From Candidatus Heimdallarchaeota archaeon (GTDB taxonomy: Archaea > Asgardarchaeota > Heimdallarchaeia > Hodarchaeales > Hodarchaeaceae), in contig CP070695.1 of the NCBI GenBank assembly GCA_020353515.1, forward strand, positions 193,683-212,847: 19,165 nt of DNA, read 5' to 3'. A program made the position numbers and the translations under genes. Positions 409 through 18,779 of this stretch are shown here, in pieces. The notes below the pieces were generated by a model, which did no database searches, had not been told where the DNA came from, and worked only from the letters and a program-made list of their open reading frames with translations. Within the stretch, counting starts at the first letter, position 1; each line of letters begins with the position of its first letter.

Positions 409-1521
409 ATGTCAATCATTGCCTATTTCATCAGTGATCATGGATTCGGACATGCTTCTCGGAGTATAGCCATTATTCGCTCTCTCCTTGAATGTGACCT
501 AGAGATTTCAATAGAAATCCACACATCAAGTCCTTTATCTTTCGTTCAAAGATCATTCTCCCAAAATGAAGAGCCACCACGTGTACAGTTCCATAAACAG
601 ATGAACGATATTGGGTTTATTGGAAATGAAACAACTGGTAAGATAGATTACCAGAGTACAGCCAAAGAAGTCTCCTTGTGGATAAACGATTGGCACACTT
701 CTTACATCTTTGAAGAGTATCGCTATCTTAAATCAAAGAATATTGATCTTATTATCTCGGATATCGCTCCTCAGCCTTTTTTATTGGCGAAAAAACTAGA
801 TCTGCCTAGTATTGCCATTAGTAATTTCACTTGGCTTGATATTTATCAAAATCCTGCGTTCAAACTAGGAGATCTAGAAGCTGTTTGGAAGGCATATCGT
901 GAAGCTTCTCTTGGGTTGATGTTACCTTTCAACTTGGATAATACTGTTTTTTGTTCAGCAATGGAGACGAATCTCGTTAGTCGACCTCCATCCCGTACCA
1001 AACAACAGATGAGGGAAATTTTAAATCTGGACTCTGGTGAACAGGTCGTTTATTTAGGAACAGGATTCTCTTTTAAGACTCCTTTCTTAGATAAATGGAC
1101 TAAAAAAAATGAGTTCCAATTAATTATTGGAGGGCAACATGAGGTTCTTCATCCGAAAATCAGAGCTGTTCCTCTTTCTGACTCTGAGGGCCAAGATTAC
1201 ATTGCTTGTAGCGATATCGCTCTCATCAAACTTGGTTACAGTTCTTTAGCTGAAGCGATTCGATCACATGTTCCAATTATTGGCATAGATTTTCCTCAAA
1301 CAGCAGAAACAAAAGAAATGAAAAAAATAGTTGAGGATTTGGGAATAGGGCTGTGTATCACATCTGAAGATTTTTTTCAGGGTAAATGGCAAGATCTTCT
1401 CCCTAAAGTAGCTGATATGAAACAGAATTTTTCTCATTTACCTGATCGTTTCGTCAAACATGGTGAATCGCAGATTGCAGGCTTTATTTTAGATCTTTTG
1501 GATGAAATTTGCAGCGTATGA
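409..1521 (+). CDS. GT-B fold glycosyltransferase-like protein (resembles the L-arabinokinase N-terminal domain / GT1-GT28-like)
   Basis: N-terminal YFISDHGFGHASRS, central DLIISDIAP and ISNFTWLDIY, C-terminal DYIACSDIALIKLGYSSLAEA. Confidence 0.75.
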   Translation: MSIIAYFISDHGFGHASRSIAIIRSLLECDLEISIEIHTSSPLSFVQRSFSQNEEPPRVQFHKQMNDIGFIGNETTGKIDYQSTAKEVSLWINDWHTSYIFEEYRYLKSKNIDLIISDIAPQPFLLAKKLDLPSIAISNFTWLDIYQNPAFKLGDLEAVWKAYREASLGLMLPFNLDNTVFCSAMETNLVSRPPSRTKQQMREILNLDSGEQVVYLGTGFSFKTPFLDKWTKKNEFQLIIGGQHEVLHPKIRAVPLSDSEGQDYIACSDIALIKLGYSSLAEAIRSHVPIIGIDFPQTAETKEMKKIVEDLGIGLCITSEDFFQGKWQDLLPKVADMKQNFSHLPDRFVKHGESQIAGFILDLLDEICSV

Positions 1522-1527
1522 TAACAA

Positions 1528-2106
1528 TTATTTTGAGGTTTTTAATAGATCAGCTTTCGTAATTATCCCAATAATTTTTCCTTTCTCTGTAACCAGAACT
1601 GCTGCTGATACTTGAAGTAGACTAGTGATGGCACTTAACGGTATCTCTTTGTTGATAACTGGAAACACATCGTCCATGATTTTTTCAACTGGATCTCCTT
1701 CTATTTCCTTTAAGGTCTGTCCTTTCAATAATACATCAAGCAAGGTCTGTTCGGTGACACTTCCCATATTTCGGCCGCTTTTTGAGAAGACAGGTACTTG
1801 AGATATTCCATTATCTTTCATCAGTTTAAACACATGTCTAATAGAATCATCAGTTTCTACAAATATTACTGAAGACATTATTTCGTATGCTTTAGTTTGA
1901 TTACGATGTTCGATTGAATATAAAGTCTGATATATGCGTCGCACAACATCATATGATGGATTCAGAGTCCCATTTTCAATTTTAGCTATCATTGACTGGG
2001 ATATTCCAACTCTATGAGCTAATTCGACCTGCGTTAAGCCAATAATTTTCCTCATTCGCCGTAGTTCAATGAGTTCAGGTAAAATTACACCGCTCATCGT
2101 CATCAT
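1528..2106 (-). CDS. Transcriptional regulator, XRE/Cro-C1 HTH plus CBS-domain pair (COG3620-like)
   Basis: HTH: LRRMRKIIGLTQVELAHRVGISQSMIAKIENGTLNPSY. CBS: EIMS...MKDNGISQVPV...GSVTEQTL and KIMD...GIITKADL. The start is probably an ATG at 2106, 2103 or 2097 rather than the GTG at 2148. Confidence 0.9.
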   Translation of the reverse strand: MMTMSGVILPELIELRRMRKIIGLTQVELAHRVGISQSMIAKIENGTLNPSYDVVRRIYQTLYSIEHRNQTKAYEIMSSVIFVETDDSIRHVFKLMKDNGISQVPVFSKSGRNMGSVTEQTLLDVLLKGQTLKEIEGDPVEKIMDDVFPVINKEIPLSAITSLLQVSAAVLVTEKGKIIGIITKADLLKTSK

Positions 2107-2138
2107 AAGAAAAAGGAGAAAGAATAATGTATGTTTCC

Positions 2139-2183
2139 AATATTCCACTCAAGAATATTTCTTTCAGAAATATATGAATTCAT
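2139..2183. promoter_or_regulatory. Candidate operator array in the divergent promoter
   Basis: AATATTC-N7-GAATATT (2139-2159), ATATTTCT-N3-AGAAATAT (2155-2173) and ATGAATTCAT (2174-2183). A TTTAA TATA-like element follows, about 25 bp before the TTG at 2211. Confidence 0.5.
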
Positions 2184-2210
2184 TTAACAATACTGGCGGA
2201 CTGACCTGCA

Positions 2211-3269
2211 TTGCCACAGTATAGTACTATCTTAACAGGGATTCATCCACTTTCAGAATCTTTAATCAAAAAAATTTTTGATTTCAAGTATGGTAGAGCT
2301 GCTTCACCTACTCATGTCAGGGATGCATTTGAAAAGGATATTAAAGACCTTGTAACATTATTATTACAATGTTTTCCTATTGCCATTTCTACTGGCAATT
2401 TAGGTTGGTGGGATCTACTTAGACCGTTTTCAGAGGAGTTACAAGGCCTTACACATAAGGGGAACATCAGAAATCTTCCTGTAGCGCGTAATCCTCTGAC
2501 AAATACCTTCTATCGTCAACCTATTATTGCGGGAAAACTTTCCTCTAAAGGTTCAGCTCTCCAAACAGCAAAACACCCTTTTCTTGATGGGAATATTCTT
2601 CAAACAAATTATCTCTCGGATAAACTCGCGAATAATGGGAAAAGCTTGTGTTTACCAGGACCATTTACTTTTTCCAGAGCAGTTTCCATTAATACTGATG
2701 GATCCAAGGTTTATAAGACACGAGATGCTTTAATGACAGATTTTTCACAGATTTTACACAATGAATTGAAGTATCTCTCATCTGAAGGTTATTCCCATGT
2801 TGTACTTGATGAGAGTTCTATCGTCTGGGAGAAGGTTGATGAGGATAGTCGTTCTTTACTTACTGATTTATGGAATCAAATTGTATCGGAATCCTCATTG
2901 AAGGTAATTCTTCATACTTACAATCGCCTTACTGAAAACAAACTTCAATTGCTATTGGATTCCAATGCTTGGGCCATTGGTATTGATTGTATAAGAAATA
3001 ATCCTCAGAAATTAGTGGAACATGATTTTAATGGAAAAATACTCTTAGCTGGGGCTGTAGATAGTCAAAGCTATCTTAGGGATATAGATGGCAATTTACT
3101 TGTGGAAAATATTGCTGATTTAGTTCAGTTAGGTAATGATCTAGCAGAGTCACAATCAGATCACATCATTCTAGCCCCAACAACACGGTTAGAATTTGTA
3201 CCCAGATCTGTCGCCGATCTTAAGTTACATCGATTAGGTCAAGCACTCAAAAAATTACAGGAAATGTAG
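2211..3269 (+). CDS. Cobalamin-independent methionine synthase-like protein, non-catalytic (MetE N-terminal-like) subunit
   Basis: MetE barrel motifs LPGPFTF, VLDESS, AIGID, AGAVDSQS and ILAPTTRLEFVP...LKL. Zn ligands are absent (LHTY in place of HxC, PTT in place of PDC). TTG start. Confidence 0.8.
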   Translation: MPQYSTILTGIHPLSESLIKKIFDFKYGRAASPTHVRDAFEKDIKDLVTLLLQCFPIAISTGNLGWWDLLRPFSEELQGLTHKGNIRNLPVARNPLTNTFYRQPIIAGKLSSKGSALQTAKHPFLDGNILQTNYLSDKLANNGKSLCLPGPFTFSRAVSINTDGSKVYKTRDALMTDFSQILHNELKYLSSEGYSHVVLDESSIVWEKVDEDSRSLLTDLWNQIVSESSLKVILHTYNRLTENKLQLLLDSNAWAIGIDCIRNNPQKLVEHDFNGKILLAGAVDSQSYLRDIDGNLLVENIADLVQLGNDLAESQSDHIILAPTTRLEFVPRSVADLKLHRLGQALKKLQEM

Positions 3270-3277
3270 ATGATACT

Positions 3278-4549
3278 ATGACAGCTAATCAACATGATCC
3301 TTTTGATCTTTTATTATCTACTCATGAAGTAGGCTCAATGAGGAAGTTAAACGCAACTATCCTTGCACTTCAAGGGAGAAAAATCCCTACCCCTCATTTA
3401 GAGGAGATTCGTCTTTGGTGGCCTAAATTAGAACTTGGAGATCCCGAGGAAGCCATTTCTCTTCTTTTAAAAAGACCTGATAGTGGTGGAAAAGATCTTC
3501 AAGATTGGGAATTGGATGTTTTAAAGCTTAGATTACGATTTAATCTCCGTTTCTTAGAAAGTACTGATTTAGATTTTGTCTATAGTGGTGAAGCATGGAG
3601 ACGGGAGATGTATGAACATGCGGCTAAAGAGATCGAAGGTATATTTCTTGAAGATGAGCATATTCGTTCTTTCGATGACCGCTTTTACAAACCAGGTGTC
3701 AGAGTAAAAAACGTTGATATTCAACGTAAAAAGGCAATTTATATTGAGGAACTTGAATACACGCAGAAATATGCTAAGAAACCTCTACGATTTTGCTTTA
3801 CTGGTCCTTATACAATATTTAACTGGACAATTAGACCATCTAACGATACTCAATTCTTGTTTGATTTAGTGGACAATGTTTTCATCCCTGAGATTAAGGA
3901 GGCAATCAAAGCAGGTGCTCGCTTTATTACCTCTGATGAACCAGCATATACAACTATTCCTGACGATCGAGATATCTATAATGAGGCTTATCATAGATTC
4001 TTTAAGGGTGTTAGTAGATTTGCAAAAGAAAAGAATTGTAGATTAGGTTTTCATACCTGCTTCTCTCATCGTTATGATATCCTATTTGAAGATTTACCAA
4101 GTTTTCCTTGGGACTTTGCTAGCCTTGAGTATGCGAATCGTGATTCAAAGCAACTTGGAACCTCTCATGATGATCGCCCCTCGTATAAAGAAGCAGTAGA
4201 AAGTGCTCTTCAAATTTATAATAGCAGAAATCGTTGTAAATTAGCACTAGGAGTCTTAGAGGTTCATGCTGATCGTCTTTTTTCTGAAAAAGAATTTGAA
4301 GCTGGAACAGCCTATAAACAACTACGTGATCTTATCCGAGACAGGCTTCTATATCAATCAAGGTATTTATATGAGAATTTGGGGGATGAAGGCCCCTTTT
4401 TGCTATTAACTGCTCCAGATTGCGGGTTAAGACCTGTGCAACGAATTAATGCTCTACACACCATGCTCACCGCCATGGTCGACGGAGCGCATGACGCTAG
4501 AACATCATTGATTAATGAGTTTGATTTACCTACTTATAGAACGAATTAA
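3278..4549 (+). CDS. metE: Cobalamin-independent methionine synthase, catalytic (MetE C-terminal-like) subunit
   Basis: THEVGS, SGEAWRREM, FTGPYTI and DEPA. Zn ligands in FHTCF (HxC), SLEYANRD (E) and APDCGLR (C). Starts 8 bp after the upstream paralog. Confidence 0.88.
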   Translation: MTANQHDPFDLLLSTHEVGSMRKLNATILALQGRKIPTPHLEEIRLWWPKLELGDPEEAISLLLKRPDSGGKDLQDWELDVLKLRLRFNLRFLESTDLDFVYSGEAWRREMYEHAAKEIEGIFLEDEHIRSFDDRFYKPGVRVKNVDIQRKKAIYIEELEYTQKYAKKPLRFCFTGPYTIFNWTIRPSNDTQFLFDLVDNVFIPEIKEAIKAGARFITSDEPAYTTIPDDRDIYNEAYHRFFKGVSRFAKEKNCRLGFHTCFSHRYDILFEDLPSFPWDFASLEYANRDSKQLGTSHDDRPSYKEAVESALQIYNSRNRCKLALGVLEVHADRLFSEKEFEAGTAYKQLRDLIRDRLLYQSRYLYENLGDEGPFLLLTAPDCGLRPVQRINALHTMLTAMVDGAHDARTSLINEFDLPTYRTN

Positions 4550-4634
4550 AAAGTTTTTTCTCAAAATAAACTAAAATTTAGATACCTAACTGAAAAATGT
4601 AAAATCAAGAAATACTAAACGAAGGAATGAAATC

Positions 4635-5798
4635 ATGGTTTCAGCACGACATTTATTTACCTCTGAATCAGTAACAGAGGGACATCCTGATAAGATGGCG
4701 GATCAAATTTCGGACGCTATTTTAGATGCGATTTTGATGGATGATCCAGAGGCCCACGTTGCCTGTGAGACGTATCTTACCACAGGAATGGCGTTAATTG
4801 GTGGAGAAATTACCACATCGACTTACGTAGATGTCCAAAAAGTGGCTCGAAAAAAAATCCAAGAGATTGGCTATACTAACTCACGAATGGGATTTGATTA
4901 CAAGTCTGTGGCCGTATTAAATACTATCCATGAACAAAGTGGGGATATTGCTAGAGGGGTTGAAAAAATCCGACTTGAAGATCAAGGAGCTGGGGATCAA
5001 GGGATGATGTTTGGATATGCATGTAGAGAAACTGAATCACTCATGCCTCTTCCGATTGTCCTTGCTCATGGATTAACGAAGCAATTGGCCACGGCCCGAA
5101 AAAATAAAGAAATTTCATGGTTACGGCCTGATGGAAAATCCCAAGCCACTGTTGATTACAGCAATGGTAAGCCAACCGAAATCACATCTGTTGTTATAGC
5201 TGCCCAACACAGTGATGAAGTCAGCCATAATGAAATCAAAGAGGAAATCATTGCAAAAGTGATTCAAAAAGTGATTCCTGAACGTTACCTGACGGATGAA
5301 ACCGAATATTTCGTTAATGAGACTGGTCGCTTTGTCATTGGGGGTCCTCATGGAGACACTGGGTTAACAGGACGAAAGATCATTGTGGATACTTATGGTG
5401 GTGTGGGTTCACATGGCGGCGGTTGCTTTTCTGGCAAAGACCCCTCGAAAGTCGACCGATCTGGTTCGTATGCTGCACGCTGGGCAGCAAAAAATGTTGT
5501 CGCAGCTGGTCTTGCAGATGAATGTGAAATCCAGATTGCGTATGCTATTGGAGTTGCCAAACCTCTGTGTATCAACTTAGATACCAAGAGGTCAAATAAA
5601 ATCCCTGAACTTGACATCTTAGACCTAATCAAAAAGCATTTTGACTTCAGGCCAGGAATGATTATTGACCGACTTAAATTGAAAAGGCCTATTTACGCTA
5701 AGACGGCTGCATATGGTCACTTTGGCCGAGATGACCCTGATTTCACCTGGGAAAAGACAGATGTTGCCCAGATCTTACGTGAAGAAGCAGGATTATAG
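4635..5798 (+). CDS. metK: S-adenosylmethionine synthetase, bacterial/eukaryotic type
   Basis: [56 protein letters not shown] and [15 protein letters not shown] lies upstream. Confidence 0.98.
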
Positions 5799-5937
5799 TC
5801 ATTTATCCTGTTTCCATATGATTGTCTAATGTATGTTTTTCACTCAACAATTGTGCTCTTAATCCAATAAGATTATTTTCTAGAAATCTCATCAAAAGAC
5901 CTTATTAATGAAAACTGTTTGATATCTACATAATTTA

Positions 5938-6882
5938 ATGGTGAACATAATGGATCGAAGCACGATGGCTCAGTTGTTTGCACGGTTTCCTATAAGTATG
6001 CGATATGTTTTAGGTGTACTGTTAATTAGTGCTTACAGCTTCGATGTTCGCGTCATCAGAGATTACATTGAAGGGAAACTTGCAACAAAATTTAATTATT
6101 CTACTGAGGCCATAGATAAAATAAAATCTCTCAAGGATCATTATATGGGAGAAAGATGCTTTATTCTTGGAAATGGGCCAAGTCTGAATCAAACAGATCT
6201 AAGCAATTTGAAGAATGAGGTTTCTATCGCATCCAGTGGGATTTTTCACATATTTAAAGAAAATGATTATAGACCAACCTACTATACAGTTGTAGATTTT
6301 ATCTTTGCTCAACAATACGCTAAAATAATAGATAGAGTTATCAAAAAAGATAATATCACTGGAGTTTTGTTAAATTCACTGAAAAAATATATTCAGGGAG
6401 ATGATAGCACAATTTGGGTGAATTTCTTACCAACCTGGATACATGGTCATTACTCTCAATATACTCTTGAGAATATGGAGACAAATAGGGAGAATCCTCT
6501 ATTACCTGAATTTAGTGAAGATCTTGTTAGAGGAATTCACGATGCAGGAACCGTGACGTATGTTAATCTCCAGTTGGCTCTTTATATGGGATTTCAAGAT
6601 ATTTATTTGATTGGGGTCGACCATAACTACCATATTGAGAAAACGATCAGAACTAAAGATGAAGATATCCTGATTAGTGACTATGAAGTGGATCCAAATC
6701 ACTTTAGTCCCAATTATACCCCAAAGGGGCATAAAATGGCGGTTCCGAGAGTTAGTATAATGGAATCATCTTATTATAAGGCAAGAAAAGTGGCAGAATC
6801 TCGGGGGATAAACATTTATGATGCAACCAAAGGGGGGCAATTAAGAGTTTATCAAAAAGTTGATTATGATTCTTTATTCTGA
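5938..6882 (+). CDS. DUF115/MptE-like (Maf-related) protein, candidate nonulosonate transferase
   Basis: RCFILGNGPSL, GTVTYVNLQLALYMGFQDIYLIGVDHNY, DPNHF and IYDATKGGQLRVY. Adjacent to the CMP-synthetase. Confidence 0.75.
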   Translation: MVNIMDRSTMAQLFARFPISMRYVLGVLLISAYSFDVRVIRDYIEGKLATKFNYSTEAIDKIKSLKDHYMGERCFILGNGPSLNQTDLSNLKNEVSIASSGIFHIFKENDYRPTYYTVVDFIFAQQYAKIIDRVIKKDNITGVLLNSLKKYIQGDDSTIWVNFLPTWIHGHYSQYTLENMETNRENPLLPEFSEDLVRGIHDAGTVTYVNLQLALYMGFQDIYLIGVDHNYHIEKTIRTKDEDILISDYEVDPNHFSPNYTPKGHKMAVPRVSIMESSYYKARKVAESRGINIYDATKGGQLRVYQKVDYDSLF

Positions 6883-7601
6883 AAGTCAAATTCTTTATGT
6901 TTTTTCATTAATCTTTCTGCTTCATTTAATCTTTCTTGGGTATCAATATCAATTTTATTCTGAGGTAGATCTTCTAAAATCAGAGGTAATATTCGTTCTC
7001 CTGTCATTGAACCCATTTTAAGAATGACATGAGTCCGAACCACGTCTATATACCCTGTTTGCCAATAAATAGGTGTCAAGATTTGTCGAGGTTGGTTGTA
7101 GGCCTCTTTAATTGTAGTTTTCATTATTGGTTTTAAATATCCTTTCTCATTGATCTTCCACATTTTATAAGGATTTTCATCAGGTACTACAACAGCTCGG
7201 ACACTGTGAGCTTCTGGATTATTTATTAGTAGATTGATGGCTTTATCAACAATATGTGGGTGTCGTAATGGGCTGGTTGGCCGTAGTTGAACAATTATTT
7301 CTGGAGTATAATTTTCCTTGTCTTTTAACCACATAAGAGCGTGTGTAAAAACAGGTAGATCAGGAGTGAGATCTTGAGCAAATATGCTAGGTCGTGTAAA
7401 AGGGATTTCAGCTCCATATTGTTTACTAATAGTTGCAATCTCTGGATCATCAGTTGAAACTATTATTCGAGTAATCAATTTACTTTCTTGAGCTACTCGT
7501 ATAGAATAATAGATCAGAGGTTTATTGGATAGAATAGCAATATTCTTTTTGGGAAGTTTTTTAGAACCTCCCCGTGCTGGAATTAATGCTAAAATCTCCA
7601 T
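6864..7601 (-). CDS. neuA: Acylneuraminate cytidylyltransferase (CMP-nonulosonate synthetase)
   Basis: ALIPARGGSKKLPKKNI, IVSTDD, QLRPTSPLR, PRQ and IDIDT. Confidence 0.92.
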   Translation of the reverse strand: MEILALIPARGGSKKLPKKNIAILSNKPLIYYSIRVAQESKLITRIIVSTDDPEIATISKQYGAEIPFTRPSIFAQDLTPDLPVFTHALMWLKDKENYTPEIIVQLRPTSPLRHPHIVDKAINLLINNPEAHSVRAVVVPDENPYKMWKINEKGYLKPIMKTTIKEAYNQPRQILTPIYWQTGYIDVVRTHVILKMGSMTGERILPLILEDLPQNKIDIDTQERLNEAERLMKKHKEFDFQNKES

Positions 7602-7656
7602 TATAAACTACATCCATTATTTAAGCTTATCTGAAAGCACAAATTTCCCAATAAAT

Positions 7657-8496
7657 TTACCAACAAGTCCAACCACCATCAATAATGAGATTAGCACCAG
7701 TCATATAGGAGGAGGCATCAGATAATAAGAAGATCATTGCCCCTTGGTACTCATGTTCTTTAGCCATTCTTCCCAGTGGGACTCGTGAAGAATAATTGTT
7801 GACAAAGGTCTTATCATGCCCAGCAAAAACCCCACCAGGTGTTAGTGTATTTACTCGTATCTTATATTTTGCCCAATATGTTGCAAGATATCGAGTAAAG
7901 TTTAACACAGCGCTTTTCGTGGTTGCATATCCAATAGGTGTATTGATGGATTGTTCTCCATATTGACTTTTGGTTCCTTGATATATGCGATGATCAGGAG
8001 AGACAACACCGTATGTAGAGGCAACATTAACGATTGATCCCCCATCAGAATTTTTTTTCATTTGTTTTCCAATTTCTCGTGTTACTAGAAACATTCCAGT
8101 AAGATTTGTATCTAAAGCCAGCTGCCAGAGCTTAAGAGGGTAGTTCTCAAAGGCTGAAAAGTAATCCTTGAATTCTGTTCCTCCTTTGGCTACTGTTAAA
8201 GCAGCGTTATTAATTAATCCATTGATCCTTCCATATTTCTCGAGGGTTTGTTCTACAAGATTTTGTACACTTTTCTCTGAGGTAATATCTACTTCACAAG
8301 CAAAACCTTCCCCACCAGTTTCATGCTCTAATATTTTGATAAAATCTTCAGCTCCGTTTAATTTGATATCTGCTATCACAGGATACCCATTAGCTATAGC
8401 TATTGCTTCTGCATAGGTCTTACCAAGGAGCCCCATTCCCCCAGTAATTACGACAACCTTTTCTCGAAGACTAAATAATTCTTGAATATTTCTCAT
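7657..8496 (-). CDS. Short-chain dehydrogenase/reductase, PtmA/ElaC-like
   Basis: TGGMGLLG, LINNAA, VASTYG, YATTK (YxxxK), PGG, PLGRMA and MTGANLIIDGGWTCW. Confidence 0.88.
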   Translation of the reverse strand: MRNIQELFSLREKVVVITGGMGLLGKTYAEAIAIANGYPVIADIKLNGAEDFIKILEHETGGEGFACEVDITSEKSVQNLVEQTLEKYGRINGLINNAALTVAKGGTEFKDYFSAFENYPLKLWQLALDTNLTGMFLVTREIGKQMKKNSDGGSIVNVASTYGVVSPDHRIYQGTKSQYGEQSINTPIGYATTKSAVLNFTRYLATYWAKYKIRVNTLTPGGVFAGHDKTFVNNYSSRVPLGRMAKEHEYQGAMIFLLSDASSYMTGANLIIDGGWTCW

Positions 8497-8515
8497 TTTT
8501 CTTCCTTCATTTTTG

Positions 8516-9475
8516 TTAATGTTTCACTTTTAATACGACATCAAGGACCATTTTTCCATCGTTCAAGGTTATGAATGGTGTTTCTCTATTTTTTACACAT
8601 TTTAGAAAATATGTGACTTCCTCAACAAACATATCATTTCTCTCATAGTTCTTTGGCGTATGGAAGACTTTCTCTTGTTTTTTAATGCGATCAAATACGG
8701 TTAGAGAATTACTGTAATAATCCCAAAATATTTTCCCCTTTTCAGCGATAATTTCGAGAGTTCTTTTGGGAGGATCCTGAATATAATCAAGGAAAATCGA
8801 ACCAATTATTTCATTCTCATGCTTAAGGTTTATAATAGAACACTCATCTGTATTCGTGGTTAATACTCTTTTTTCACTTAAATGACCATATGCTTCTTTA
8901 ACAGAGCCAAAAAGCCATATCGCTGTATCTATATCATGACTCAATGTCAGAAGTGATCCTCCTCCTAATTCATCTCTGGCACTGTATCCTTTTCGATAAT
9001 CCTCCCATGGATGCCAGTTTGGGAGATATTCTCCATACATACTTCTATAACCAACAACTTCTCCGAGAGTTTCGTTTAAGAGAATATCTCTTATTCTCTT
9101 CAAGAGCGGATGGAATCGCATATTATAACCCACCATCGTAGTAATACCTTTCTCTTGTACAAGTTCACTAAATTTATCTAATCCTTCTAATGAATTTGAT
9201 ATGGGTTTTTCAATAAATAAGTGAGCAGTAGTTCTTTCTAAGACTTTTAATGCCATTGGCACATGCATACTAGTAGGATTTGTTAAGAATACAACCTTTG
9301 GGTTTTCATTAATGGCTTCATCAAAAGCAAAGTACTCTGTTATGTTATTTTTCTGACAAAATTCCATTTTTTCTGGTCGTGATCTATAAGCAATGAGATC
9401 ATGATACCCTAGTTTCTTCAGATTTGTTGCGTGTCTTTTTCCTATTGATCCAAGTCCAATCATTAAAATTTTCAT
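8516..9475 (-). CDS. Gfo/Idh/MocA family NAD(P)-dependent oxidoreductase
   Basis: IGLGSIGKRH, LFIEKP, VGYNMRFHP, YLPNWHPWEDYR and GGGSLLTLSHDID. Confidence 0.9.
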   Translation of the reverse strand: MKILMIGLGSIGKRHATNLKKLGYHDLIAYRSRPEKMEFCQKNNITEYFAFDEAINENPKVVFLTNPTSMHVPMALKVLERTTAHLFIEKPISNSLEGLDKFSELVQEKGITTMVGYNMRFHPLLKRIRDILLNETLGEVVGYRSMYGEYLPNWHPWEDYRKGYSARDELGGGSLLTLSHDIDTAIWLFGSVKEAYGHLSEKRVLTTNTDECSIINLKHENEIIGSIFLDYIQDPPKRTLEIIAEKGKIFWDYYSNSLTVFDRIKKQEKVFHTPKNYERNDMFVEEVTYFLKCVKNRETPFITLNDGKMVLDVVLKVKH

Positions 9476-9724
9476 CTAAATACACCGTTTTTGTTGCTTA
9501 TAAATCACCAAGGCAAAATAATCAAAAATTTGTGTAATTATTTTAATCTGATGGTTTTTTGAAAGTGCTTTAAACAATTTATAGGTATTTCCAAGTGAAA
9601 TTTGTACATGTTATGGAAACTTCTGATTTTTTCATTAATGCTTTAAAATAAATTCAATTATTGCCCATTGATTTAATTAACTCTTTTTACAACTTTATTT
9701 TCCTGATCACAACTAAAATAATCT
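9476..9724. promoter_or_regulatory. Divergent promoter region between the oxidoreductase-SDR-neuA and neuB-HAD units
   Basis: About 250 bp of very AT-rich spacer with several TTTAAA/TTTATA TATA-like hexamers. Individual elements cannot be assigned. Confidence 0.45.
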
Positions 9725-10633
9725 ATGATATTAATAGAAAAGAAGTGTAAAACTTTGAAGGAGATTATTGTTGGAAATAAGCGGATTTCAGAAGATTCAC
9801 CTGTATTTTTCATTGCAGAGATTGGTATAAATCATAATGGTGATTTGGATCTCGCAAAAGAAATCATCGATATTGCTGTTTTTTGTGGTGCGGACGCTGT
9901 TAAGTTTCAAAAACGTACTTTAGAACTTTCTATTCCACAGGAAATAAGAAATAGGGCGAAAGAGACCCCTTGGGGTGAGATGACCTATTATGAATATAAG
10001 CAGAGATTAGAATTCGGAGAGTCAGAATATAAGGAGATTGATAGGTATTGTAGGGAGAAGGGAATAATGTGGTCTGCTTCTGCTTGGGATGTTCCTAGTT
10101 TAAATTTTTTAGAAGAAAGGGAAGTTCCTTTTCATAAAATTCCATCACCACAATTGACAAACAGGGAATTACTTGTTGCAGCAAGAAAAACCAATAAACC
10201 TGTGTTTTTAGGAACTGGGATGAGTACTATAGAGGAGATGGAAAAGGCTATTCACATTTTCAAAGATTACCCATTAATAATAATGCACTGCAATTCTGAC
10301 TATCCTTCTAAAAATGGTGATTTGAACCTTTCTTATATCCCTAAGCTAATAGAATTATATCCAGATCATATTATTGGTTATAGTGGGCATGAGGAAGGAA
10401 TTTCAGCCAGTCTTGTTGCAGCAACATTAGGCGCAAAAGTGATTGAAAGACATGTAACCAAAAATCGAGCAATGTGGGGTACGGACCAAGCAGCATCAAT
10501 AGAATTAAGTGGATTGAGAAGAATAGTCCGTGATTTAAAGAAATTACCAATTTGGTTAGGAAATGGTAATAAAGTGGTGACACCATCTGAAGAGCTGATG
10601 AAGAAAAAATTAAGGAATGTGAAAACTCTTTAA
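9725..10633 (+). CDS. neuB: NeuB-family nonulosonate synthase lacking the C-terminal SAF domain (KDN-9-phosphate synthase-like)
   Basis: IAEIGINHNGD, DAVKFQKR, KIPS, GMST, MHC..YP, GYSGHE, IERH and WGTDQAAS. The protein ends just after the barrel. The start may be the TTG at 9755. Confidence 0.92.
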   Translation: MILIEKKCKTLKEIIVGNKRISEDSPVFFIAEIGINHNGDLDLAKEIIDIAVFCGADAVKFQKRTLELSIPQEIRNRAKETPWGEMTYYEYKQRLEFGESEYKEIDRYCREKGIMWSASAWDVPSLNFLEEREVPFHKIPSPQLTNRELLVAARKTNKPVFLGTGMSTIEEMEKAIHIFKDYPLIIMHCNSDYPSKNGDLNLSYIPKLIELYPDHIIGYSGHEEGISASLVAATLGAKVIERHVTKNRAMWGTDQAASIELSGLRRIVRDLKKLPIWLGNGNKVVTPSEELMKKKLRNVKTL

Positions 10634-10715
10634 TTTGATTTTCTTAGGCTAAACTACTTATTAAACAAATTCAAAGAAAATAAACTTGTGATTATTTAGT
10701 TTTAATGGTTGTGCG

Positions 10716-11225
10716 GTGAAAAATATCAAAGAAATAAGTTTAGAACCCTTTGAGGCCATCAAAAAGGTAAAAATGGCTATTTTTGATGTTGATGGAATAT
10801 TTACTGATGGCTGTGTCTATGTTGATTCGAAAGGGAGAGAACTGATAAAATTTTCCAGAATAGATGGAAAAGGAATAGAATTGTTAATAGAAGCAGGTAT
10901 TCATATTGGTGTTATTTCTTCAGAAGCTAGTGATGTAGTCAAGTTCAGAATGGGAAAACTTAACATTTCTGAGGTTTATCTAGGTATCAAAAATAAATTA
11001 GAGATTTATAATAGAATAAAAGAGAAATTTCACCTTACAGATAAGGAAATTTGTTATTGCGGGGATGATCTTCAAGACATCCCGGTCTTAAGACAATGTG
11101 GGTTTTCCTGTTGTCCAAAAAATGCCCAAGATGAAGTGAAAAATATTTGTGACTATATCTCAGAGTACGAGGGAGGCAGAGGTTTTGTTAGAGATATATG
11201 CAACAAAATATTAAGTGCCATTTAA
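10716..11225 (+). CDS. HAD C0 phosphatase of the KdsC family, KDN-9-phosphate phosphatase-like
   Basis: FDVDGIFTDG, ISSE, KNKL, GDDLQD and GGRGFVRD. GTG start. Confidence 0.88.
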   Translation: MKNIKEISLEPFEAIKKVKMAIFDVDGIFTDGCVYVDSKGRELIKFSRIDGKGIELLIEAGIHIGVISSEASDVVKFRMGKLNISEVYLGIKNKLEIYNRIKEKFHLTDKEICYCGDDLQDIPVLRQCGFSCCPKNAQDEVKNICDYISEYEGGRGFVRDICNKILSAI

Positions 11226-11300
11226 CTAAATTAACATTAAATGTTGTCATCATCGTTTTTAAATGACTTAAATAATCTTAAGATTTATCCCACGAAATGG

Positions 11301-12680
11301 ATGAAAATGACCACCAATGTTGCTGTAATAGGCATGGGGTATGTTGGAATCCCCATTGCCGTCTTACTCGCCGATAAGGAAATCTTTAACGTTACTGGCG
11401 TTCAACGACGTTCAAAGCGATCAGGGTGGAAGATTGATTATCTCAATCAAGGGAAATGCCCTATTAAAAATGAACCTGATCTCCCAGAACTGATTTCAAG
11501 AGTGGTTAACGAGAAAAAAACTTTCTCAGTGACGGATGACATTTCTGTTGTTAAGAACATGGATTATGTACTAATCGATGTTCAGACCCCGACCGATGAA
11601 CAGCATATTCCACAATATGTGTCTTTAAAGGAAGTCAGTCATCAGGTTGGTCAACATCTATCAAAAGGAACTACTGTCATCATTGAGTCCACCTGTGCTC
11701 CAGGGACAACTGATTTCATTGTAAAACCTATTCTAGAAGAGGGTTCATCATTTAAGTGTGAAGAAGATTTTTTTCTTGCTTTTGCCTATGAGAGAGTCAT
11801 GGTTGGCAGGTTAATCTATAACATCTTGAATTATCCACGAATAGTTGGTGGAATTGGGGCCGAAAGCTCAGAGAAGGCAAGTTGGTTATATAAACAGGTT
11901 TTAAACAGTGAGGTTGTACAAACCACCGCACTCACGGCTGAACTCGCGAAAGTAGTGGAAAACACTTACCGTGATGTAAATGTTGGCTTTGCAAATGAAG
12001 TAGCATTAGTTTGTGAGTCATTGGGAGTAGATGTTTATGAAGTACGGGATCTTGTAAATAACCTCCCTTTTATAGAAGGAAGAGGTAATCCTCATCGAAA
12101 TATGCACATACCAGGGGCTGGTGTGGGAGGCCATTGCCTTCCTAAAGATCCCTGGTTATTGAAATATGGTGTCACACAATATGGAAAGAACCCTGTCCCA
12201 TTGAATGTGATTGAATCCAGTCGCTTCCGTAATTTATCCATGCCAAAACATGTTGTTCATCTCTTGAAAGAATGTGAAGCTGAAACCAATCGTAAGAATT
12301 CTAAAGATCAGAAAATCGCAGTTTTAGGTGTAGCTTTCATTGAAGATTCTGATGATCCCCGAAACACTCCTACACAAGATTTAGTGAATTTCCTCATTGA
12401 AGAAAATTATCTATATGCAGTTCACGATCCCTTTGTACGCCAAGATGAGGTAGAATTCCCTTTCTCATCGAATTTAGAAGAAGTTATCCGCGATTCGGAC
12501 GCGGTAATTGTTGTTACAGCCCATCAAGAGTATAAAAACTTGGATTTAAGCTACATTAAATCCTTAATGAAAGACAATCCGATATTAATTGATGGAAGAA
12601 AGACTTTTGATCCTAAAAAAGTAATTCAACAAGGTTTCAGCTATCGAGGAGTGGGTCGGGGCCAGTTTAGAACGGGTTGA
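11301..12680 (+). CDS. Nucleotide-sugar 6-dehydrogenase (UDP-ManNAc/UDP-GlcNAc dehydrogenase, WecC/WbpA-like)
   Basis: VIGMGYVG, DVQTP, IESTCAPGTT, AELAKVVENTYRDVN, PGAGVGGHCLPKD and DDPRNTP. The start is more likely ATG 11301 or 11307 than 11241. Confidence 0.92.
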   Translation: MKMTTNVAVIGMGYVGIPIAVLLADKEIFNVTGVQRRSKRSGWKIDYLNQGKCPIKNEPDLPELISRVVNEKKTFSVTDDISVVKNMDYVLIDVQTPTDEQHIPQYVSLKEVSHQVGQHLSKGTTVIIESTCAPGTTDFIVKPILEEGSSFKCEEDFFLAFAYERVMVGRLIYNILNYPRIVGGIGAESSEKASWLYKQVLNSEVVQTTALTAELAKVVENTYRDVNVGFANEVALVCESLGVDVYEVRDLVNNLPFIEGRGNPHRNMHIPGAGVGGHCLPKDPWLLKYGVTQYGKNPVPLNVIESSRFRNLSMPKHVVHLLKECEAETNRKNSKDQKIAVLGVAFIEDSDDPRNTPTQDLVNFLIEENYLYAVHDPFVRQDEVEFPFSSNLEEVIRDSDAVIVVTAHQEYKNLDLSYIKSLMKDNPILIDGRKTFDPKKVIQQGFSYRGVGRGQFRTG

Positions 12681-12708
12681 GCGATTTAGTAGAGTTTCTT
12701 TGACTAAT

Positions 12709-13338
12709 TTAGATCAGTTTCCATCGAATCACTTCAAAAGCTTCAGCGTATTTCTCCTTGATTTGAACCCCCCTTGCGATTGCTAATCCTCGTACGAATT
12801 CTGGATTCACATATTCACGATGTGATTGGCTCTTATAGCACAGTAAAGCTTCTATTTTCTTCTGTACATGTTTTTCTTGTAAAACACTAAAACACTGAGT
12901 TCTAAAAGTGATATTATTCCAGGGTAATTCATAACCTAAAATAGAATCGGTTTTAAATGCTCTAACCCCTTCTTGTGAAAGTGTAGTATGGTCTTGGTGT
13001 AAATCATTTGGTGAAGGTAAGAAAATAATTTCTGGCTCTAATTCTTTCCGGAGTTTCACTAACTCTTCTAGAATATCCTGCCGATTATAAGAAAATCTTC
13101 GTACAGGATAATCATATAGCTTCAGGTGATCTTGAGGAAGACCTAACACGTCTGCTGCCTTTTTTATTTCCTTTATCAAAGTATCATCGGGTAATTCAGG
13201 ATTTATTGATGCTCTTGCACATGAAAAAGCAGCTAAATACAACTCTCTCTTCTGTTCTATGAGTTTTGCAATACTCCCACCCATTGAGAGTTCTCCATCA
13301 TCTGTATGAGGGGCTAACACTAAGATTCTTCCAGTCAT
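12709..13338 (-). CDS. PIG-L/LmbE family zinc deacetylase
   Basis: APHTDDGELSMGG, DLHQDH, YKSQ and YAEAFE. A strong AGAGGAG immediately precedes ATG 13338, supporting that start. Confidence 0.9.
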   Translation of the reverse strand: MTGRILVLAPHTDDGELSMGGSIAKLIEQKRELYLAAFSCARASINPELPDDTLIKEIKKAADVLGLPQDHLKLYDYPVRRFSYNRQDILEELVKLRKELEPEIIFLPSPNDLHQDHTTLSQEGVRAFKTDSILGYELPWNNITFRTQCFSVLQEKHVQKKIEALLCYKSQSHREYVNPEFVRGLAIARGVQIKEKYAEAFEVIRWKLI

Positions 13339-13502
13339 TTTTACTCCTCTTAATCCTGTCAATTCAAAAATGTTTAGTGATGTGAATGTTATTCATCAAT
13401 ACATAAAGATACTAGAATATCTCTAACTTCTCTTAATTCGCTATAAATCCTTTTTAACAGATATTTAAACCTTGTATTTCTCTTTTCTGAATCATCATAA
13501 TT

Positions 13503-14222
13503 TCATGATATAATAGAGGAGAAAGTTTGAAAATCATCAATAGCCTCGACAAGTGTCTGAAAGTCTTCTTTCTCTTTCCTAGAGTAAACCCATTTGTAAG
13601 GGTGAGTAAGTAACACAATAGTTTTTCCCTTAGAAGCAGCCTCAATTAACCAGGTGATTGGATAGCGTACAACATCACGATAATTTTCATCAAGCCAAAA
13701 AGATCCTTTAAAAACTTGCAATTCGCCCATTTGAAGCGGTTCTAAGGTTGGGATCTCCTCGTTTCCAGTAAAATATCGTAGATTCATTTCTTGGCCTAAT
13801 TTGATTAAAGAAGGAAAATCATATTCTACTGTATGATACTTTGAAAGCTTGAGCTGACCTGATCCATGTTTTGAGTACCCTAATATCGGTGTGGGAAGAT
13901 TTTTAGACAATTCCTGGAGATCATCTTGAAAATATCTTAGAGAGGCTGTTCTTTCTGCATGATAGGCGATTTCGTGCCCTGAGCTGAGTAACTCTTGTTG
14001 AAATTTTCTATTTGGTCTGGATTGTACACGAAAAAACCATGTGGCAGGAATCTTGGCTTCTCTTAAGGTATGAAAAAGGGATTTTGCTTGAGCGAGATAT
14101 CCAAGAAAGTCGTAACGAATAGGAAATCTTCGATAATTTGTGGAAAAATAATTTAACACCTTTTTTGGAAATGAATAATAACCATAAGGATTATCAACGT
14201 CAATTCTTAGAATAATAGGCAC
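13503..14222 (-). CDS. Polysaccharide deacetylase-like (NodB/GH57-type barrel) protein
   Basis: ILRIDVD, ATWFF, GHEIAYH, SKHG and LLTHP. AAGGAG lies upstream of the GTG. Confidence 0.7.
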   Translation of the reverse strand: MPIILRIDVDNPYGYYSFPKKVLNYFSTNYRRFPIRYDFLGYLAQAKSLFHTLREAKIPATWFFRVQSRPNRKFQQELLSSGHEIAYHAERTASLRYFQDDLQELSKNLPTPILGYSKHGSGQLKLSKYHTVEYDFPSLIKLGQEMNLRYFTGNEEIPTLEPLQMGELQVFKGSFWLDENYRDVVRYPITWLIEAASKGKTIVLLTHPYKWVYSRKEKEDFQTLVEAIDDFQTFSSIIS

Positions 14223-14237
14223 AAAACTTTCTCCTTT

Positions 14238-15425
14238 TCATTTACTTTTTTGAGGAGCTGAAAAAAATTTTCTGATTGATGATATAAAGGATAGTATGAA
14301 TTGCCAGCTAAGTGGAGATAGATCCCATTTTTTGATATCAGTACTATCCTTTTGAGCACATAATTGTAAATATGCTCCTAGTGACTTTATCTTTGAGGAG
14401 GAATCATAAATGTGTTTCACCCCCATAGGAAATGGCCAACCATGGACCTGTCCCACGTTGTACCTGAGAGTTGGAGGAACGTCTCCCTCGACTGCAACTT
14501 TGTATAGAAGATATGGGAAGTTTACTCCTGCTGCGATAGCGAGTCCCAAGGTTCCCCAAAACTTGGGATTCACCTCCAAAAGACGAGGATGATTTTCATT
14601 ATCCATTTTAAACTCTAACATCGCCACTCCATGCCATCTCAAGTGTGTCATTAATCGTTGACTGTACCGTACAAGTTTAGGATAATCTACCGTGATGTTC
14701 AGAGCACCAGAACCACCATTTACAGGATAACACAGGACTCTTTTTTGAGCAACGGCGGCTCGCATCTTACCATGAACAAATAACACTAACACGTCATAAA
14801 TATCTCCAGGGAGATATTCTTGAAGGATTGGGTGAGAATAATCAATTATGTCCTCTGAACTCTCCTTTTCTCTGGAAAATTCAGAAAATTCCCTAAGTAC
14901 CTTTTTAAGCCCTGATTTAGAATAAGCATATTTAACCTGACCAGTTCCACTTCCTTTCCGTGCTTTAACAATCCATGGAAATGATAAATGAGTAGAATAA
15001 GATAGTGCATCCCTTACTGACGTTACACTATAGGTTTGGGGAGTTGGTATTTTCAATTTTGTTGCTATTTCCATAACTCGCTGTTTATCATGAGCCTGAA
15101 CATAAGTGTGATAATCTACCACTGGCACCGTGGTATATTGTTCTAGTTCCTCTTTATACTTGGAGACCAGAGTAAAGGTGTCAATTCCTACGGGCATCAA
15201 AACATTGACGGTTTTTTTTCGCAGATAAGTAATTAAAAAACGCCTGAATTCTTCGGGAGTCCTTCTAGGAGACGGATATAAGACTCTAGCGCTAGGTAAT
15301 TTCGAATAGAAGCACAGACTTCTTTTCTTGAAGCTGCCAACATTTACCTTAATGTTATTCGATACTAATGCCCTTAAAGCAGCGAGACTGTTTTTATACT
15401 CTGCATTTGTAAGAAAAACACTCAT
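14238..15425 (-). CDS. ATP-grasp carboxylate-amine ligase family protein
   Basis: AHDK, FPWIVKARKGSG, ILQEYLPG, GVAMLEFK, LLEVNPKFWG and GVNFPYL. Confidence 0.88.
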   Translation of the reverse strand: MSVFLTNAEYKNSLAALRALVSNNIKVNVGSFKKRSLCFYSKLPSARVLYPSPRRTPEEFRRFLITYLRKKTVNVLMPVGIDTFTLVSKYKEELEQYTTVPVVDYHTYVQAHDKQRVMEIATKLKIPTPQTYSVTSVRDALSYSTHLSFPWIVKARKGSGTGQVKYAYSKSGLKKVLREFSEFSREKESSEDIIDYSHPILQEYLPGDIYDVLVLFVHGKMRAAVAQKRVLCYPVNGGSGALNITVDYPKLVRYSQRLMTHLRWHGVAMLEFKMDNENHPRLLEVNPKFWGTLGLAIAAGVNFPYLLYKVAVEGDVPPTLRYNVGQVHGWPFPMGVKHIYDSSSKIKSLGAYLQLCAQKDSTDIKKWDLSPLSWQFILSFISSIRKFFSAPQKSK

Positions 15426-15668
15426 TAATGAGTTACTCCGTCTAATAGTAACATTAATTCATTTTAACAATTAATTTATTATCTATAACAAAAGTTAAAC
15501 CTTATTTTCCTATTAATCTTCCGTTCTTCTCAAACATCTATAAATTGTAAAACTATTGTTAGATAGGTGGGAATTGCACATAGGATCACAAAGGAAATAT
15601 ATCTGATCTAATTCTTCTGTCTTGAGTCTGTTTAGGAGTTTGAGCGATAAAACTGGAGATAATTCCCT

Positions 15669-16757
15669 TTGAGAGTTTTGCATATAGAGGAAAATTTAGT
15701 CAGCACGCGAGCAGAAAGATTTATACAGTTGGATTCCAAACTTGGACACAATGTTGGATTTCTAGGCGGATTTGAACGGCCTCCGACTCCAAAATTAGAT
15801 ATATTGGATAATCTCGCTCTTTATCACGTCGGCCTCAATCGGGGATTTTTTCTGGGGAGGATTTCAAATGATCATTATGAGAAATTAGGGGCAGCGATAG
15901 ATGATTTTGATCCTGATATTATACATGCTCACAATATTCATTTTTTGAATTTTGTTCAGATTTACCTGAAAAAAAATCGAGTGGAAATTCCTATAGTCTA
16001 TAATGATCATGAATTCTGGTCAGAACGAGCAAGTCTCATTTATAAAGATCATCTCTCTTCTTTGAATTTAATCAAGTCCTTACAAACCTATTATAAATTT
16101 CGTTTATTCAAAAGGTGGGAAAAATCTTATGTCCCAATTTCAGCAGTACTCACCGTCTCTAAGGAAATTGCTGACGCGCATTCAAAAAAATATACCCCGA
16201 AATTCGTCTCCTACATTCCAAATATGCCTACTAATGCTGAATTGAATAAAGCGAGATTTGATGATCGTGAAGAAGAAAGAACTGCAGTATATGTTGGACC
16301 AGATTTTTCCAAAAGAGAAAATCCTTTTCGTGATGCAAGAGGACTGCTCAAAATGTGGAGAAAAAAAAGACCTGCCAAATTGATCCTTCTTGGTGATCCT
16401 TTTGCTCATACGGATGAGTCCGTTAAATCTCTAGGCCGTGTTCCTCATATGAAGATTTACGAATATTCAAGTAACGCTCATTTCGGTCTTCTCCCATACC
16501 TTCCACATTATTTTCACGAATATTGTAGCCCAAATAAGATTTACATCTATATACACTCAGGAGCCTTACCTATTCTCCCTAAAAAACTTAGATTTGAGGT
16601 AGATGTCCCACGATTTTCTACTGCAGAGGAATTTTTTGCCATCTTATCTAATTCGCCTCTCCCCGATGTTGATGAGGTTAAAATGATAGCCAAAGACACT
16701 TTAATTGCTGACCGATATTTAGAAAATTTAAAACAGGCTTATGAGATAACTCAATGA
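15669..16757 (+). CDS. Glycosyltransferase, GT4-like (divergent)
   Basis: RVLHI N-terminus, DFDPDIIHAHN, IVYNDHEFW, VLTVS, LGRVPH and SPNKIYIY. TTG start with GGAG upstream. Confidence 0.75.
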   Translation: MRVLHIEENLVSTRAERFIQLDSKLGHNVGFLGGFERPPTPKLDILDNLALYHVGLNRGFFLGRISNDHYEKLGAAIDDFDPDIIHAHNIHFLNFVQIYLKKNRVEIPIVYNDHEFWSERASLIYKDHLSSLNLIKSLQTYYKFRLFKRWEKSYVPISAVLTVSKEIADAHSKKYTPKFVSYIPNMPTNAELNKARFDDREEERTAVYVGPDFSKRENPFRDARGLLKMWRKKRPAKLILLGDPFAHTDESVKSLGRVPHMKIYEYSSNAHFGLLPYLPHYFHEYCSPNKIYIYIHSGALPILPKKLRFEVDVPRFSTAEEFFAILSNSPLPDVDEVKMIAKDTLIADRYLENLKQAYEITQ

Positions 16758-16780
16758 TATTAACAAACAGAATTAGAGAA

Positions 16781-17893: not shown

Positions 17894-18187
17894 AATAACC
17901 AACTTTTTAATCCGTCTGATAACGTCTATTTCAAAATGAGGAAGCAAAATAACCAAAGACAGAGTGCTAAATGGCGAATAGATTCTTTGGAATTTGAATA
18001 TTTTGTTATTATTATTTCTTAAAATTGATATGAACTGTAAGTGAAAAAAAATGAAGATGAAACAAATTTTTATAAAATCTCAAGATTAAGATTCGCCTGA
18101 AATAATGAATAAGTACTTTGATCTTTCTCCTAGATGATTACCAAGGGATATCATGTCTAAGTTTCAGAGACAATAGGTGACGAATTA

Positions 18188-18745: not shown

Positions 18746-18779
18746 ATAGATTAGCTATATTCGAGGACGAGGAAAAGTA

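Follow-up and report, generated by a model that had tools for sequence, protein, structure and literature searches.

MetJ, MetR, SahR and the riboswitches that sense S-adenosylmethionine (SAM) are all bacterial, and to our knowledge the regulation of methionine and SAM synthesis in archaea is essentially unknown. Here, we analyzed by computation a window of 19,165 nucleotides (the whole stretch of DNA under consideration, C1:193683-212847 of the single-contig, 4.94-Mb assembly G000, 36% G+C) from Candidatus Heimdallarchaeota archaeon, in which a gene for a protein combining an XRE-type helix-turn-helix (HTH) domain with a pair of CBS domains, hereafter the regulator, is divergent from metE-like-1, metE-like-2 and metK. 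This arrangement had been read from the letters in a first-pass annotation of the window, and both the open reading frames (ORFs) and the domains are confirmed by Pfam and NCBIfam. We consider it probable that the regulator is the local member of a widespread family of archaeal transcription regulators of methionine, homocysteine and SAM genes. In the mechanism that we propose, a regulator dimer would bind the palindrome AATATTC-N7-GAATATT via its two XRE-type HTH domains, between the TATA-like boxes of its own gene and of the metE-like-1/metE-like-2(/metK) operon; the CBS pair at the C-terminus would bind an adenosyl-sulfur metabolite, most probably SAM; a ligand-driven rearrangement of the Bateman dimer would alter DNA binding; and SAM would in this way feed back on the expression of methionine synthase, SAM synthetase and the regulator gene.

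By function, the regulator would be closest to MetJ of Escherichia coli, by design to CcpN, and by its sensor module to the Bateman domain of human cystathionine beta-synthase (hCBS); in kind, it would be an end-product-sensing transcription factor. With MetJ, it would share the role of a SAM-sensing protein placed over methionine genes and metK, divergent orientation relative to its targets, autoregulation and short repeated operator boxes. However, MetJ is a ribbon-helix-helix protein with tandem met boxes, whereas here an XRE HTH is joined to a CBS pair, the site is an ATTC-N6/7-GAAT palindrome and the setting is the archaeal TBP/TFB machinery. The earlier view that the two proteins are unrelated holds, neither a MetJ nor a ribbon-helix-helix family being found among the Pfam and NCBIfam matches. 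CcpN (YqzB) of Bacillus subtilis, which represses gapB, pckA and sr1, resembles the regulator in carrying an N-terminal DNA-binding domain and one adenine-nucleotide-binding Bateman module, and its CBS pair (3fv6) is matched by Foldseek (E = 7e-9, 21% identity). Nevertheless, CcpN is bacterial and serves a gluconeogenesis regulon, no CcpN model is present among the 22 NCBIfam matches, and its N-terminal domain, an HTH of a different class, is absent among the regulator's sequence matches to solved structures.

The SAM-activated Bateman domain of hCBS is the closest characterized CBS pair by both NCBIfam and Foldseek; equivalents of its Q445, P447, T535 and D538 are invariant or nearly so in the regulator family, and it too belongs to sulfur amino acid metabolism. 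The human module, however, controls an enzyme domain allosterically rather than DNA binding, its D444 and F443 are Ser and Ile here, and the identity is 22-25%. The archaeal Bateman module of MJ0100 (Methanocaldococcus jannaschii), solved in complexes with SAM and methylthioadenosine (MTA), is recovered as a profile match (3kpb/3kpc, E = 3e-13), but has another N-terminal domain and no HTH, and ranks below many CBS proteins in the profile and Foldseek searches. HhpR of Pyrococcus yayanosii is an archaeal CBS-domain transcriptional activator (PMC11705074) and gives a weak NF053603 match (29.7 bits vs. a cut-off of 520); it is, however, a pressure-responsive protein with four CBS domains and no HTH. 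Bacterial SAM riboswitches (the S-box and others) exert the same SAM feedback on metK and methionine genes, but are RNA based. As had been proposed, the leaders of the window contain no such element, a scan of positions 1400-6000 against Rfam 15 yielding no riboswitch at E <= 1 and only one chance snoRNA match. Full-text literature searches, with subscription journals outside their coverage, returned no description of an archaeal Met/SAM regulator of this kind, and PMC1282579, PMC3388794 and the AmzR preprint do not cover an XRE HTH plus CBS Met/SAM regulator; the regulator-operator system is apparently an unpublished candidate switch for archaeal methionine/SAM synthesis.

Three observations, each computed directly, bear on the proposed mechanism: the domain architecture of the regulator, its linkage to Met/SAM genes across phyla, and a conserved operator that co-occurs with it. 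The HTH_3 domain (PF01381, E = 6e-12, 45.8 bits vs. a cut-off of 23) lies at residues 29-72 of a 206-aa reading of the protein, and the CBS pair (PF00571, E = 7e-18, 65.1 bits) is matched in two stretches; in the 189-aa numbering used throughout, the HTH occupies residues ~9-65 and the CBS pair, or Bateman module, residues ~70-189. An AF2 model (pLDDT 89.4) has four to five short helices at residues 9-65 and the beta-alpha-beta-beta-alpha pattern twice in the CBS part, which more than 400 CBS pairs of the PDB match at E <= 1e-3. The same Pfam architecture recurs in 152 homologues (E <= 1e-10) of 170-230 aa and, in the species genomes of GTDB, a profile of the family matches at least 597 stretches. 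Variants of the recognition helix include SQSMI, SQSLI and SQAHV, the last in P0117 and P0120. The family is COG3620-type by architecture (N-terminal XRE HTH, one CBS pair, about 180-200 aa, archaea), and it bears only generic names in the databases searched. No solved structure with the XRE HTH plus CBS architecture was present among the sequence matches to solved structures.

Beyond the genus, we examined the best 80 loci of the at least 597 profile matches (37-48% identity, at least six archaeal phyla), which come from Bathyarchaeia, Woesearchaeota, Micrarchaeota, Iainarchaeota, Methanosarcinales, Nitrososphaerales, Thermoplasmatales and other lineages; their neighbouring ORFs were clustered and the representatives annotated. 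Related genomes in this sample are non-independent, and several loci end at contig edges. The commonest neighbour of the regulator gene is the bacterial-type metK, present in 32 of the 80 loci and both adjacent and divergent in 25 of these. An archaeal-type SAM synthetase (methionine adenosyltransferase, MAT; PF01941, E = 2.5e-164) neighbours the regulator in 14 further loci and is adjacent and divergent in 12 of them. Two enzyme families for one reaction thus occupy the same slot beside the regulator, which a functional tie explains easily and inherited gene order hardly. Other divergent partners include a MetY/B-like Cys/Met pyridoxal phosphate (PLP) enzyme (PF01053, L042), HcyBio, the archaeal enzyme of homocysteine biosynthesis, fused to CBS (PF01837, L043) and PALP enzymes (L069, L092). 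In two loci of Nitrososphaerales/Nitrososphaerota (L079, L093), the archaeal-type MAT gene is not divergent but lies downstream of the regulator in the same orientation, much as in an operon.

The conserved core partner of the regulator across archaea is therefore SAM synthetase, not metE. The Met/SAM regulon put forward in the first-pass annotation stands as to linkage, which is strongly positive among homologues far beyond the genus, and gains a conserved operator; what changes is its centre, the metE pair being a Heimdall-group addition. The split metE pair, placed between the regulator and metK, is thus an insertion of the Heimdall group into an older regulator/MAT divergon. The closest non-Asgard homologues (L026-L029, Bathyarchaeia, 46-48% identity) have neither the palindrome nor a MAT neighbour; their genes diverge from that of a putative cyclase (PF04199) and converge with that of an Obg-like GTPase, and these homologues may constitute a subgroup directed at another target.

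Closer to the window, the source names attached to the nearest homologues are Hodarchaeota, Hodarchaeales, Heimdallarchaeota or Hermodarchaeota. The regulator is present in 9 of the 22 same-genus genomes searched, G000 included (63-100% identity), and is divergent from metE1-metE2 in all seven of the other genomes with a readable flank (63-88% identity; G014 among them), the contig of the eighth, G017, beginning at the regulator gene. The position of metK is more variable: it directly follows metE2 in G008 and G011, is separated from it by an inserted MTHFR gene (PF02219) in G002, and lies off the metE contig in G016 and G001 and apparently also in G021, whose contig stops shortly beyond metE2. 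In G034, which belongs to another family of the class and encodes a regulator of 38% identity, the order is the regulator divergent from metE1-metE2-MTHFR-metK. Both G002 and G034 carry two copies of metK; in the search output for G034, the copy linked to the operon contains a single in-frame TAG. A further 38%-identical homologue, in G033 of another family of the class (L021:8306), is divergent from the acetyl-CoA synthase/carbon monoxide dehydrogenase genes CdhC and CdhD; it is accompanied by a perfect TATTCC-N4-GGAATA palindrome, and no bacterial-type metK was found in G033 with the query used.

The third observation concerns the palindrome in the divergent intergenic region. Within the window, it is not remarkable (3 palindrome matches at one mismatch or fewer vs. 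1.84 expected, not above chance), so its evidential weight comes from conservation in other genomes. Across the eight same-genus intergenic regions, the left half does not vary and the spacing is always N7, with a degenerate right half in two, and G034 carries TATTC-N6-GAATA. In other phyla, (A)ATATTC-N6-GAATA(T) is found in nearly every regulator/MAT intergenic region. Of the 80 loci, 61 have the core ATTC-N6-GAAT in the 250 bp preceding the regulator gene, at a density of 3.2 per kb upstream of the regulator vs. 0.029 per kb in the remaining 924 kb (~110-fold), and loci without the exact motif mostly have one-mismatch versions, not a different palindrome. Elsewhere in the 80 loci there are 27 copies of ATTC-N6-GAAT, the intergenic ones being informative: five stand 34-75 nt ahead of MAT genes that do not adjoin the regulator (L039, L060, L064, L086, L104), one lies 94 nt upstream of a homoserine O-acyltransferase gene, MetA (PF04204, L057), and a further two precede PALP enzyme genes (L083). 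In three genomes of the same class that lack a regulator homologue (92-95% complete), which served as a negative control, the 400 bp upstream of metK contain no palindrome. The N7 spacer is specific to the genus, N6 being found in almost all other phyla, and coincides, as a correlation only, with a one-residue deletion at the HTH arm/CBS1 junction of the genus regulators relative to the N6 lineages. In G023, two N6 palindromes (L020:7586 and 7763) lie 177 bp apart upstream of a regulator homologue, one of them at the 3' end of a 320-aa ORF without a Pfam match.

Within G000 itself, the regulon seems to be the local divergon only. A scan for exact TATTC-N6/7-GAATA gave 58 matches, with no excess over other spacings; about 12 of these are intergenic and, besides the site of the window, their flanking genes are unrelated to Met/SAM metabolism (aminotransferase, octopine dehydrogenase-like, EF-Tu-like, CheR, SDH, Eco57I and others). 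Neither the Cys/Met PLP nor the PALP homologues of G000 are preceded by the relaxed motif, a wider regulon was found by neither the exact nor the relaxed motif scans of this genome, and a search for a second operator before metK found none in the window. In the same-genus genomes G001 and G016, the leader of the unlinked metK (L123, L124) contains GGAATTTTTCTTTCAG, which is like the right half-site and spacer of the metE promoter, as well as an everted GAAT-N7-ATTC, with no proper palindrome.

The layout of the promoters was read on a redefined intergenic region. The divergent region of ~100 bp described earlier is real, yet its bounds of 2107-2210, drawn from ATG 2106, become 2098-2210 (113 bp): the longest ORF of the regulator is 1528-2148 on the minus strand, with further in-frame starts at 2103, 2106 and 2148 (GTG), and the ATG at 2097 is favoured by orthologue N-termini (M-S/T-x-P-x-LP[DE]L) and by the recorded gene call P0002 (189 aa). 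The block AAAGAATAATGT, centred ~27 nt from this ATG, is the probable TATA box of the regulator gene, whose mRNA would then be leaderless and start near 2097. Eight nucleotides separate it from the palindrome, and the layout is symmetrical, the palindrome lying midway between two divergent TATA-like boxes. On the metE side, the block AAATATATGAAT, which ends in a GAAT resembling a half-site, probably represents the BRE/TATA (TFB recognition element and TATA box) of metE, and ~22 nt beyond it stands the Shine-Dalgarno (SD)-like TGACC. The TTG start of metE-like-1 and the preceding TGAyC are kept in all eight same-genus orthologues, with tblastn alignments beginning at residue 1. In nearly all regulator/MAT intergenic regions of other phyla, a TATA-like box follows the palindrome at a distance of about 10-17 nt, the centre of the palindrome having a median distance of 34 nt from the regulator start codon (24-40 nt in most) and of 67 nt from the MAT start codon. 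With a leaderless mRNA, the palindrome would fall on the core promoter of the regulator gene itself, which makes negative autoregulation of the regulator gene likely. A GAAT/GGAAT half-site right after or overlapping the target TATA is found in Bathyarchaeia with bacterial-type MAT, in L047 and L051, and in the window.

As for the ligand, NCBIfam places the CBS pair nearest to the C-terminal regulatory module of cystathionine beta-synthase (TIGR01137, E = 1.2e-18), with the runner-up family at 41 bits. The top Foldseek matches are likewise human CBS (4l28, 4uuu), the SAM-bound structure 4uuu aligning with a TM-score of 0.77 on the target, a root-mean-square deviation of 2.3 Å and 25% identity, and MJ0100 (SAM/MTA) and CcpN are further close matches. 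In HMMER coordinates, the family-invariant stretch G-I-S99-Q100-V-P102-V aligns with G-F443-D444-Q445-A-P447-V of hCBS, and T180 and D183 align with T535 and D538 when the deletion of residues 516-525 in the crystallized constructs is allowed for. The segment G177-I-I-T180-K-A-D183, which represents the ribose motif G-h-h-T/S-x-x-D/N, is invariant or nearly so in 71 sequences. Mutagenesis by McCorvie et al. shows the importance of F443, D444, Q445 and D538 for SAM (AdoMet) binding in hCBS (PMC4276868). Of the SAM-site residues of hCBS, Q, T and D are retained in the regulator, and the adenosyl site is, judging from these alignments, intact and similar to a known SAM site. Our preference for SAM as the most probable ligand stems mainly from the partner genes, all of which belong to the route leading to methionine and SAM. 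Matches of BurrH repeat proteins to a short CBS1 fragment were rejected as chance matches to 'GFSQ'.

A number of observations weigh against the proposed mechanism or would suit other explanations. About one-third of the 80 loci have no Met/SAM gene in the available flanking DNA; G000 has only one good site, that of the window; in the two same-genus genomes with unlinked metK, there is only a right-half-like remnant upstream of that gene; and in the window, metK, 85 bp beyond metE-like-2, is itself not preceded by an operator. That the regulator binds the palindrome we infer from their co-occurrence only. The linkage might, then, be inherited gene order without function, with the regulator controlling itself or unrelated genes, or with another factor binding the palindrome. 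Besides the loci without a Met/SAM neighbour, this would fit unrelated neighbours such as MCM, HisRS, a helicase and CdhC/CdhD (G033), as well as the other exact motif copies in G000, which adjoin unrelated genes. Yet the pairing spans at least six phyla in which the neighbourhoods are otherwise scrambled, the two MAT families take the same divergent position, separate operators precede unlinked MAT, MetA and PALP genes, and metK has no operator in genomes that lack the regulator, which renders this explanation very improbable. The position of the operator raises a different question, that of the sign of control: its centre precedes the inferred transcription start by ~50 bp at metE and, in other phyla, by ~55-60 bp at MAT. 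In archaea, such positions upstream of BRE/TATA are typical of activators (e.g., LysM, Ptr2 and TrmBL1) rather than repressors. With the same regulator and operator, the ligand-free protein might recruit TBP/TFB to the metE/MAT promoter and repress its own, SAM releasing it from the DNA. The palindrome ends ~10 nt (here) or 15-17 nt (other phyla) upstream of the target TATA-like box, with its centre near -50 to -60, and its centre lies 24-40 nt from the regulator start in most other phyla, fitting autorepression coupled to divergent activation; the half-site that follows or overlaps the target TATA would, however, suit repression through a second contact. Activation is a possibility that we take seriously while judging it the less probable, and as to sign, for which the first-pass annotation had proposed a repressor, we lean only slightly to repression, with SAM as corepressor.

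Equally, the CBS pair might sense S-adenosylhomocysteine (SAH), MTA, methionine or adenine nucleotides, such that the genes answer to methylation by-products or ATP supply. AcuB (AMP/ADP/ATP) and CbpB (c-di-AMP) score almost as high as hCBS in Foldseek and, together with MJ0100, are close Foldseek/HMM matches; CBS pairs with the G-h-h-T-x-x-D motif bind AMP, ADP, ATP, c-di-AMP and MTA, the T and D being generic for adenosyl ligands (AMP, ATP, MTA, SAH and NAD). In addition, both F443 and D444 of hCBS are substituted in the regulator (I98 and S99), so that D444 is not conserved, and MAT consumes ATP. On the other hand, the partners (both MAT types, MetE, MTHFR, MetA, MetY/B-like, HcyBio and PALP) all lie on the Met/SAM route, which argues for an end-product signal rather than energy charge. 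K181 is the sole basic residue of the phosphate-site kind among the family-invariant CBS positions, the conserved polar residues being mostly S, Q, E, D and T, and the best matches in both sequence and fold are the SAM-binding module of cystathionine beta-synthase. A ligand other than SAM hence seems to us rather unlikely, and we retain SAM feedback, exerted through the regulator and its palindrome, as the preferred reading of the locus.

The genes and sites of the locus are collected in Table 1. The regulator, metE1, metE2 and metK are each present in a single copy in G000 (tblastn), and metK is the only MAT found there, archaeal-type MAT (PF01941) not being found in this genome. The two metE-like genes, 8 bp apart, are a split or two-paralogue form of MetE: metE-like-1 resembles the N-terminal (Meth_synt_1) half of cobalamin-independent methionine synthase, with weak NCBIfam MetE matches, and metE-like-2 matches the methionine synthase models PRK04326/PRK01207 (E = 1e-38, under the equivalog cut-offs). 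Against TIGR01371, the model of full-length MetE, in which both halves form one chain of about 750 aa, they score 38 and 66 bits vs. a cut-off of 930, and their pairwise similarity is not significant. The T6 tract ahead of metK may be a partial archaeal terminator; metE1-metE2(/metK) would form one operon, in which co-transcription of metK is only putative, given this tract and the 85-bp gap. Searches of G000 by tblastn (1e-8) with proteins of relatives as queries did not find MTHFR, MetA or HcyBio homologues; G002 and G034 keep MTHFR inside the operon, while the G000 search with these queries found none.

Table 1. Genes and sequence elements of the regulator-metE-metK locus (positions in the window).
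Feature	Position	Strand	Basis or remark
Regulator gene, XRE-type HTH + CBS pair	1528-2097	-	189 aa, Pfam
Conserved block AAAGAATAATGT (read on + strand)	2119-2130	-	3 of 8 same-genus intergenic regions, variant in a fourth; probable TATA box of regulator
Predicted operator AATATTC-N7-GAATATT	2139-2159	.	Exact inverted repeat; core TATTC-N7-GAATA at 2141-2157
Spacer TCTTTCAG	2160-2167	+	Between palindrome and metE TATA-like block
Invariant block AAATATATGAAT (AAyATATGAA(T))	2168-2179	+	Invariant columns, 8-genome alignment; probable BRE/TATA of metE
SD-like TGACC (2202-2206), then TTG start of metE-like-1 at 2211	2202-2213	+	Alignment
metE-like-1 (Meth_synt_1-like)	2211-3269	+	352 aa; PF08267, E = 1e-10
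metE-like-2 (catalytic-type Meth_synt_2)	3278-4549	+	423 aa; PF01717, E = 8e-21
T6 tract	4554-4559	+	Read from sequence, directly 3' of metE2 stop
metK, bacterial/eukaryotic-type SAM synthetase	4635-5798	+	TIGR01034, 584.9 bits vs. cut-off 309.4

Beyond the Met/SAM operon, positions 5938-19165 of the window are taken up by a large glycan cluster that points to a nonulosonic acid pathway. Its members are an MptE-like/Maf-like protein, a CMP-sugar synthetase, SDR, Gfo/Idh/MocA, NeuB, a HAD phosphatase, a UDP-sugar dehydrogenase, a PIG-L deacetylase, ATP-grasp, GT4, a UDP-GlcNAc 2-epimerase, GNAT and a 4,6-dehydratase.

Finally, the comparison across phyla raises a broader proposition, namely that the regulator represents a pan-archaeal, ancient protein sensor of SAM that combines an XRE HTH with a Bateman module, has a ligand site related to that of eukaryotic cystathionine beta-synthase, and controls SAM synthetase of either family together with lineage-specific genes (MetE, MTHFR, MetA, HcyBio and PALP) via one operator; we regard the arguments for and against this wider claim as evenly balanced. 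The locus offers a concrete regulator, operator and regulon that are directly testable, within a family spanning Asgard, Thermoproteota, DPANN and methanogen-related lineages. If the proposed mechanism is true, it would assign a function to a large, generically named family and extend the short list of CBS pairs that govern DNA binding. It would also provide a compact switch, responsive to SAM, for use in archaeal genetics and in biosensors, and an archaeal counterpart of MetJ and the bacterial SAM riboswitches.

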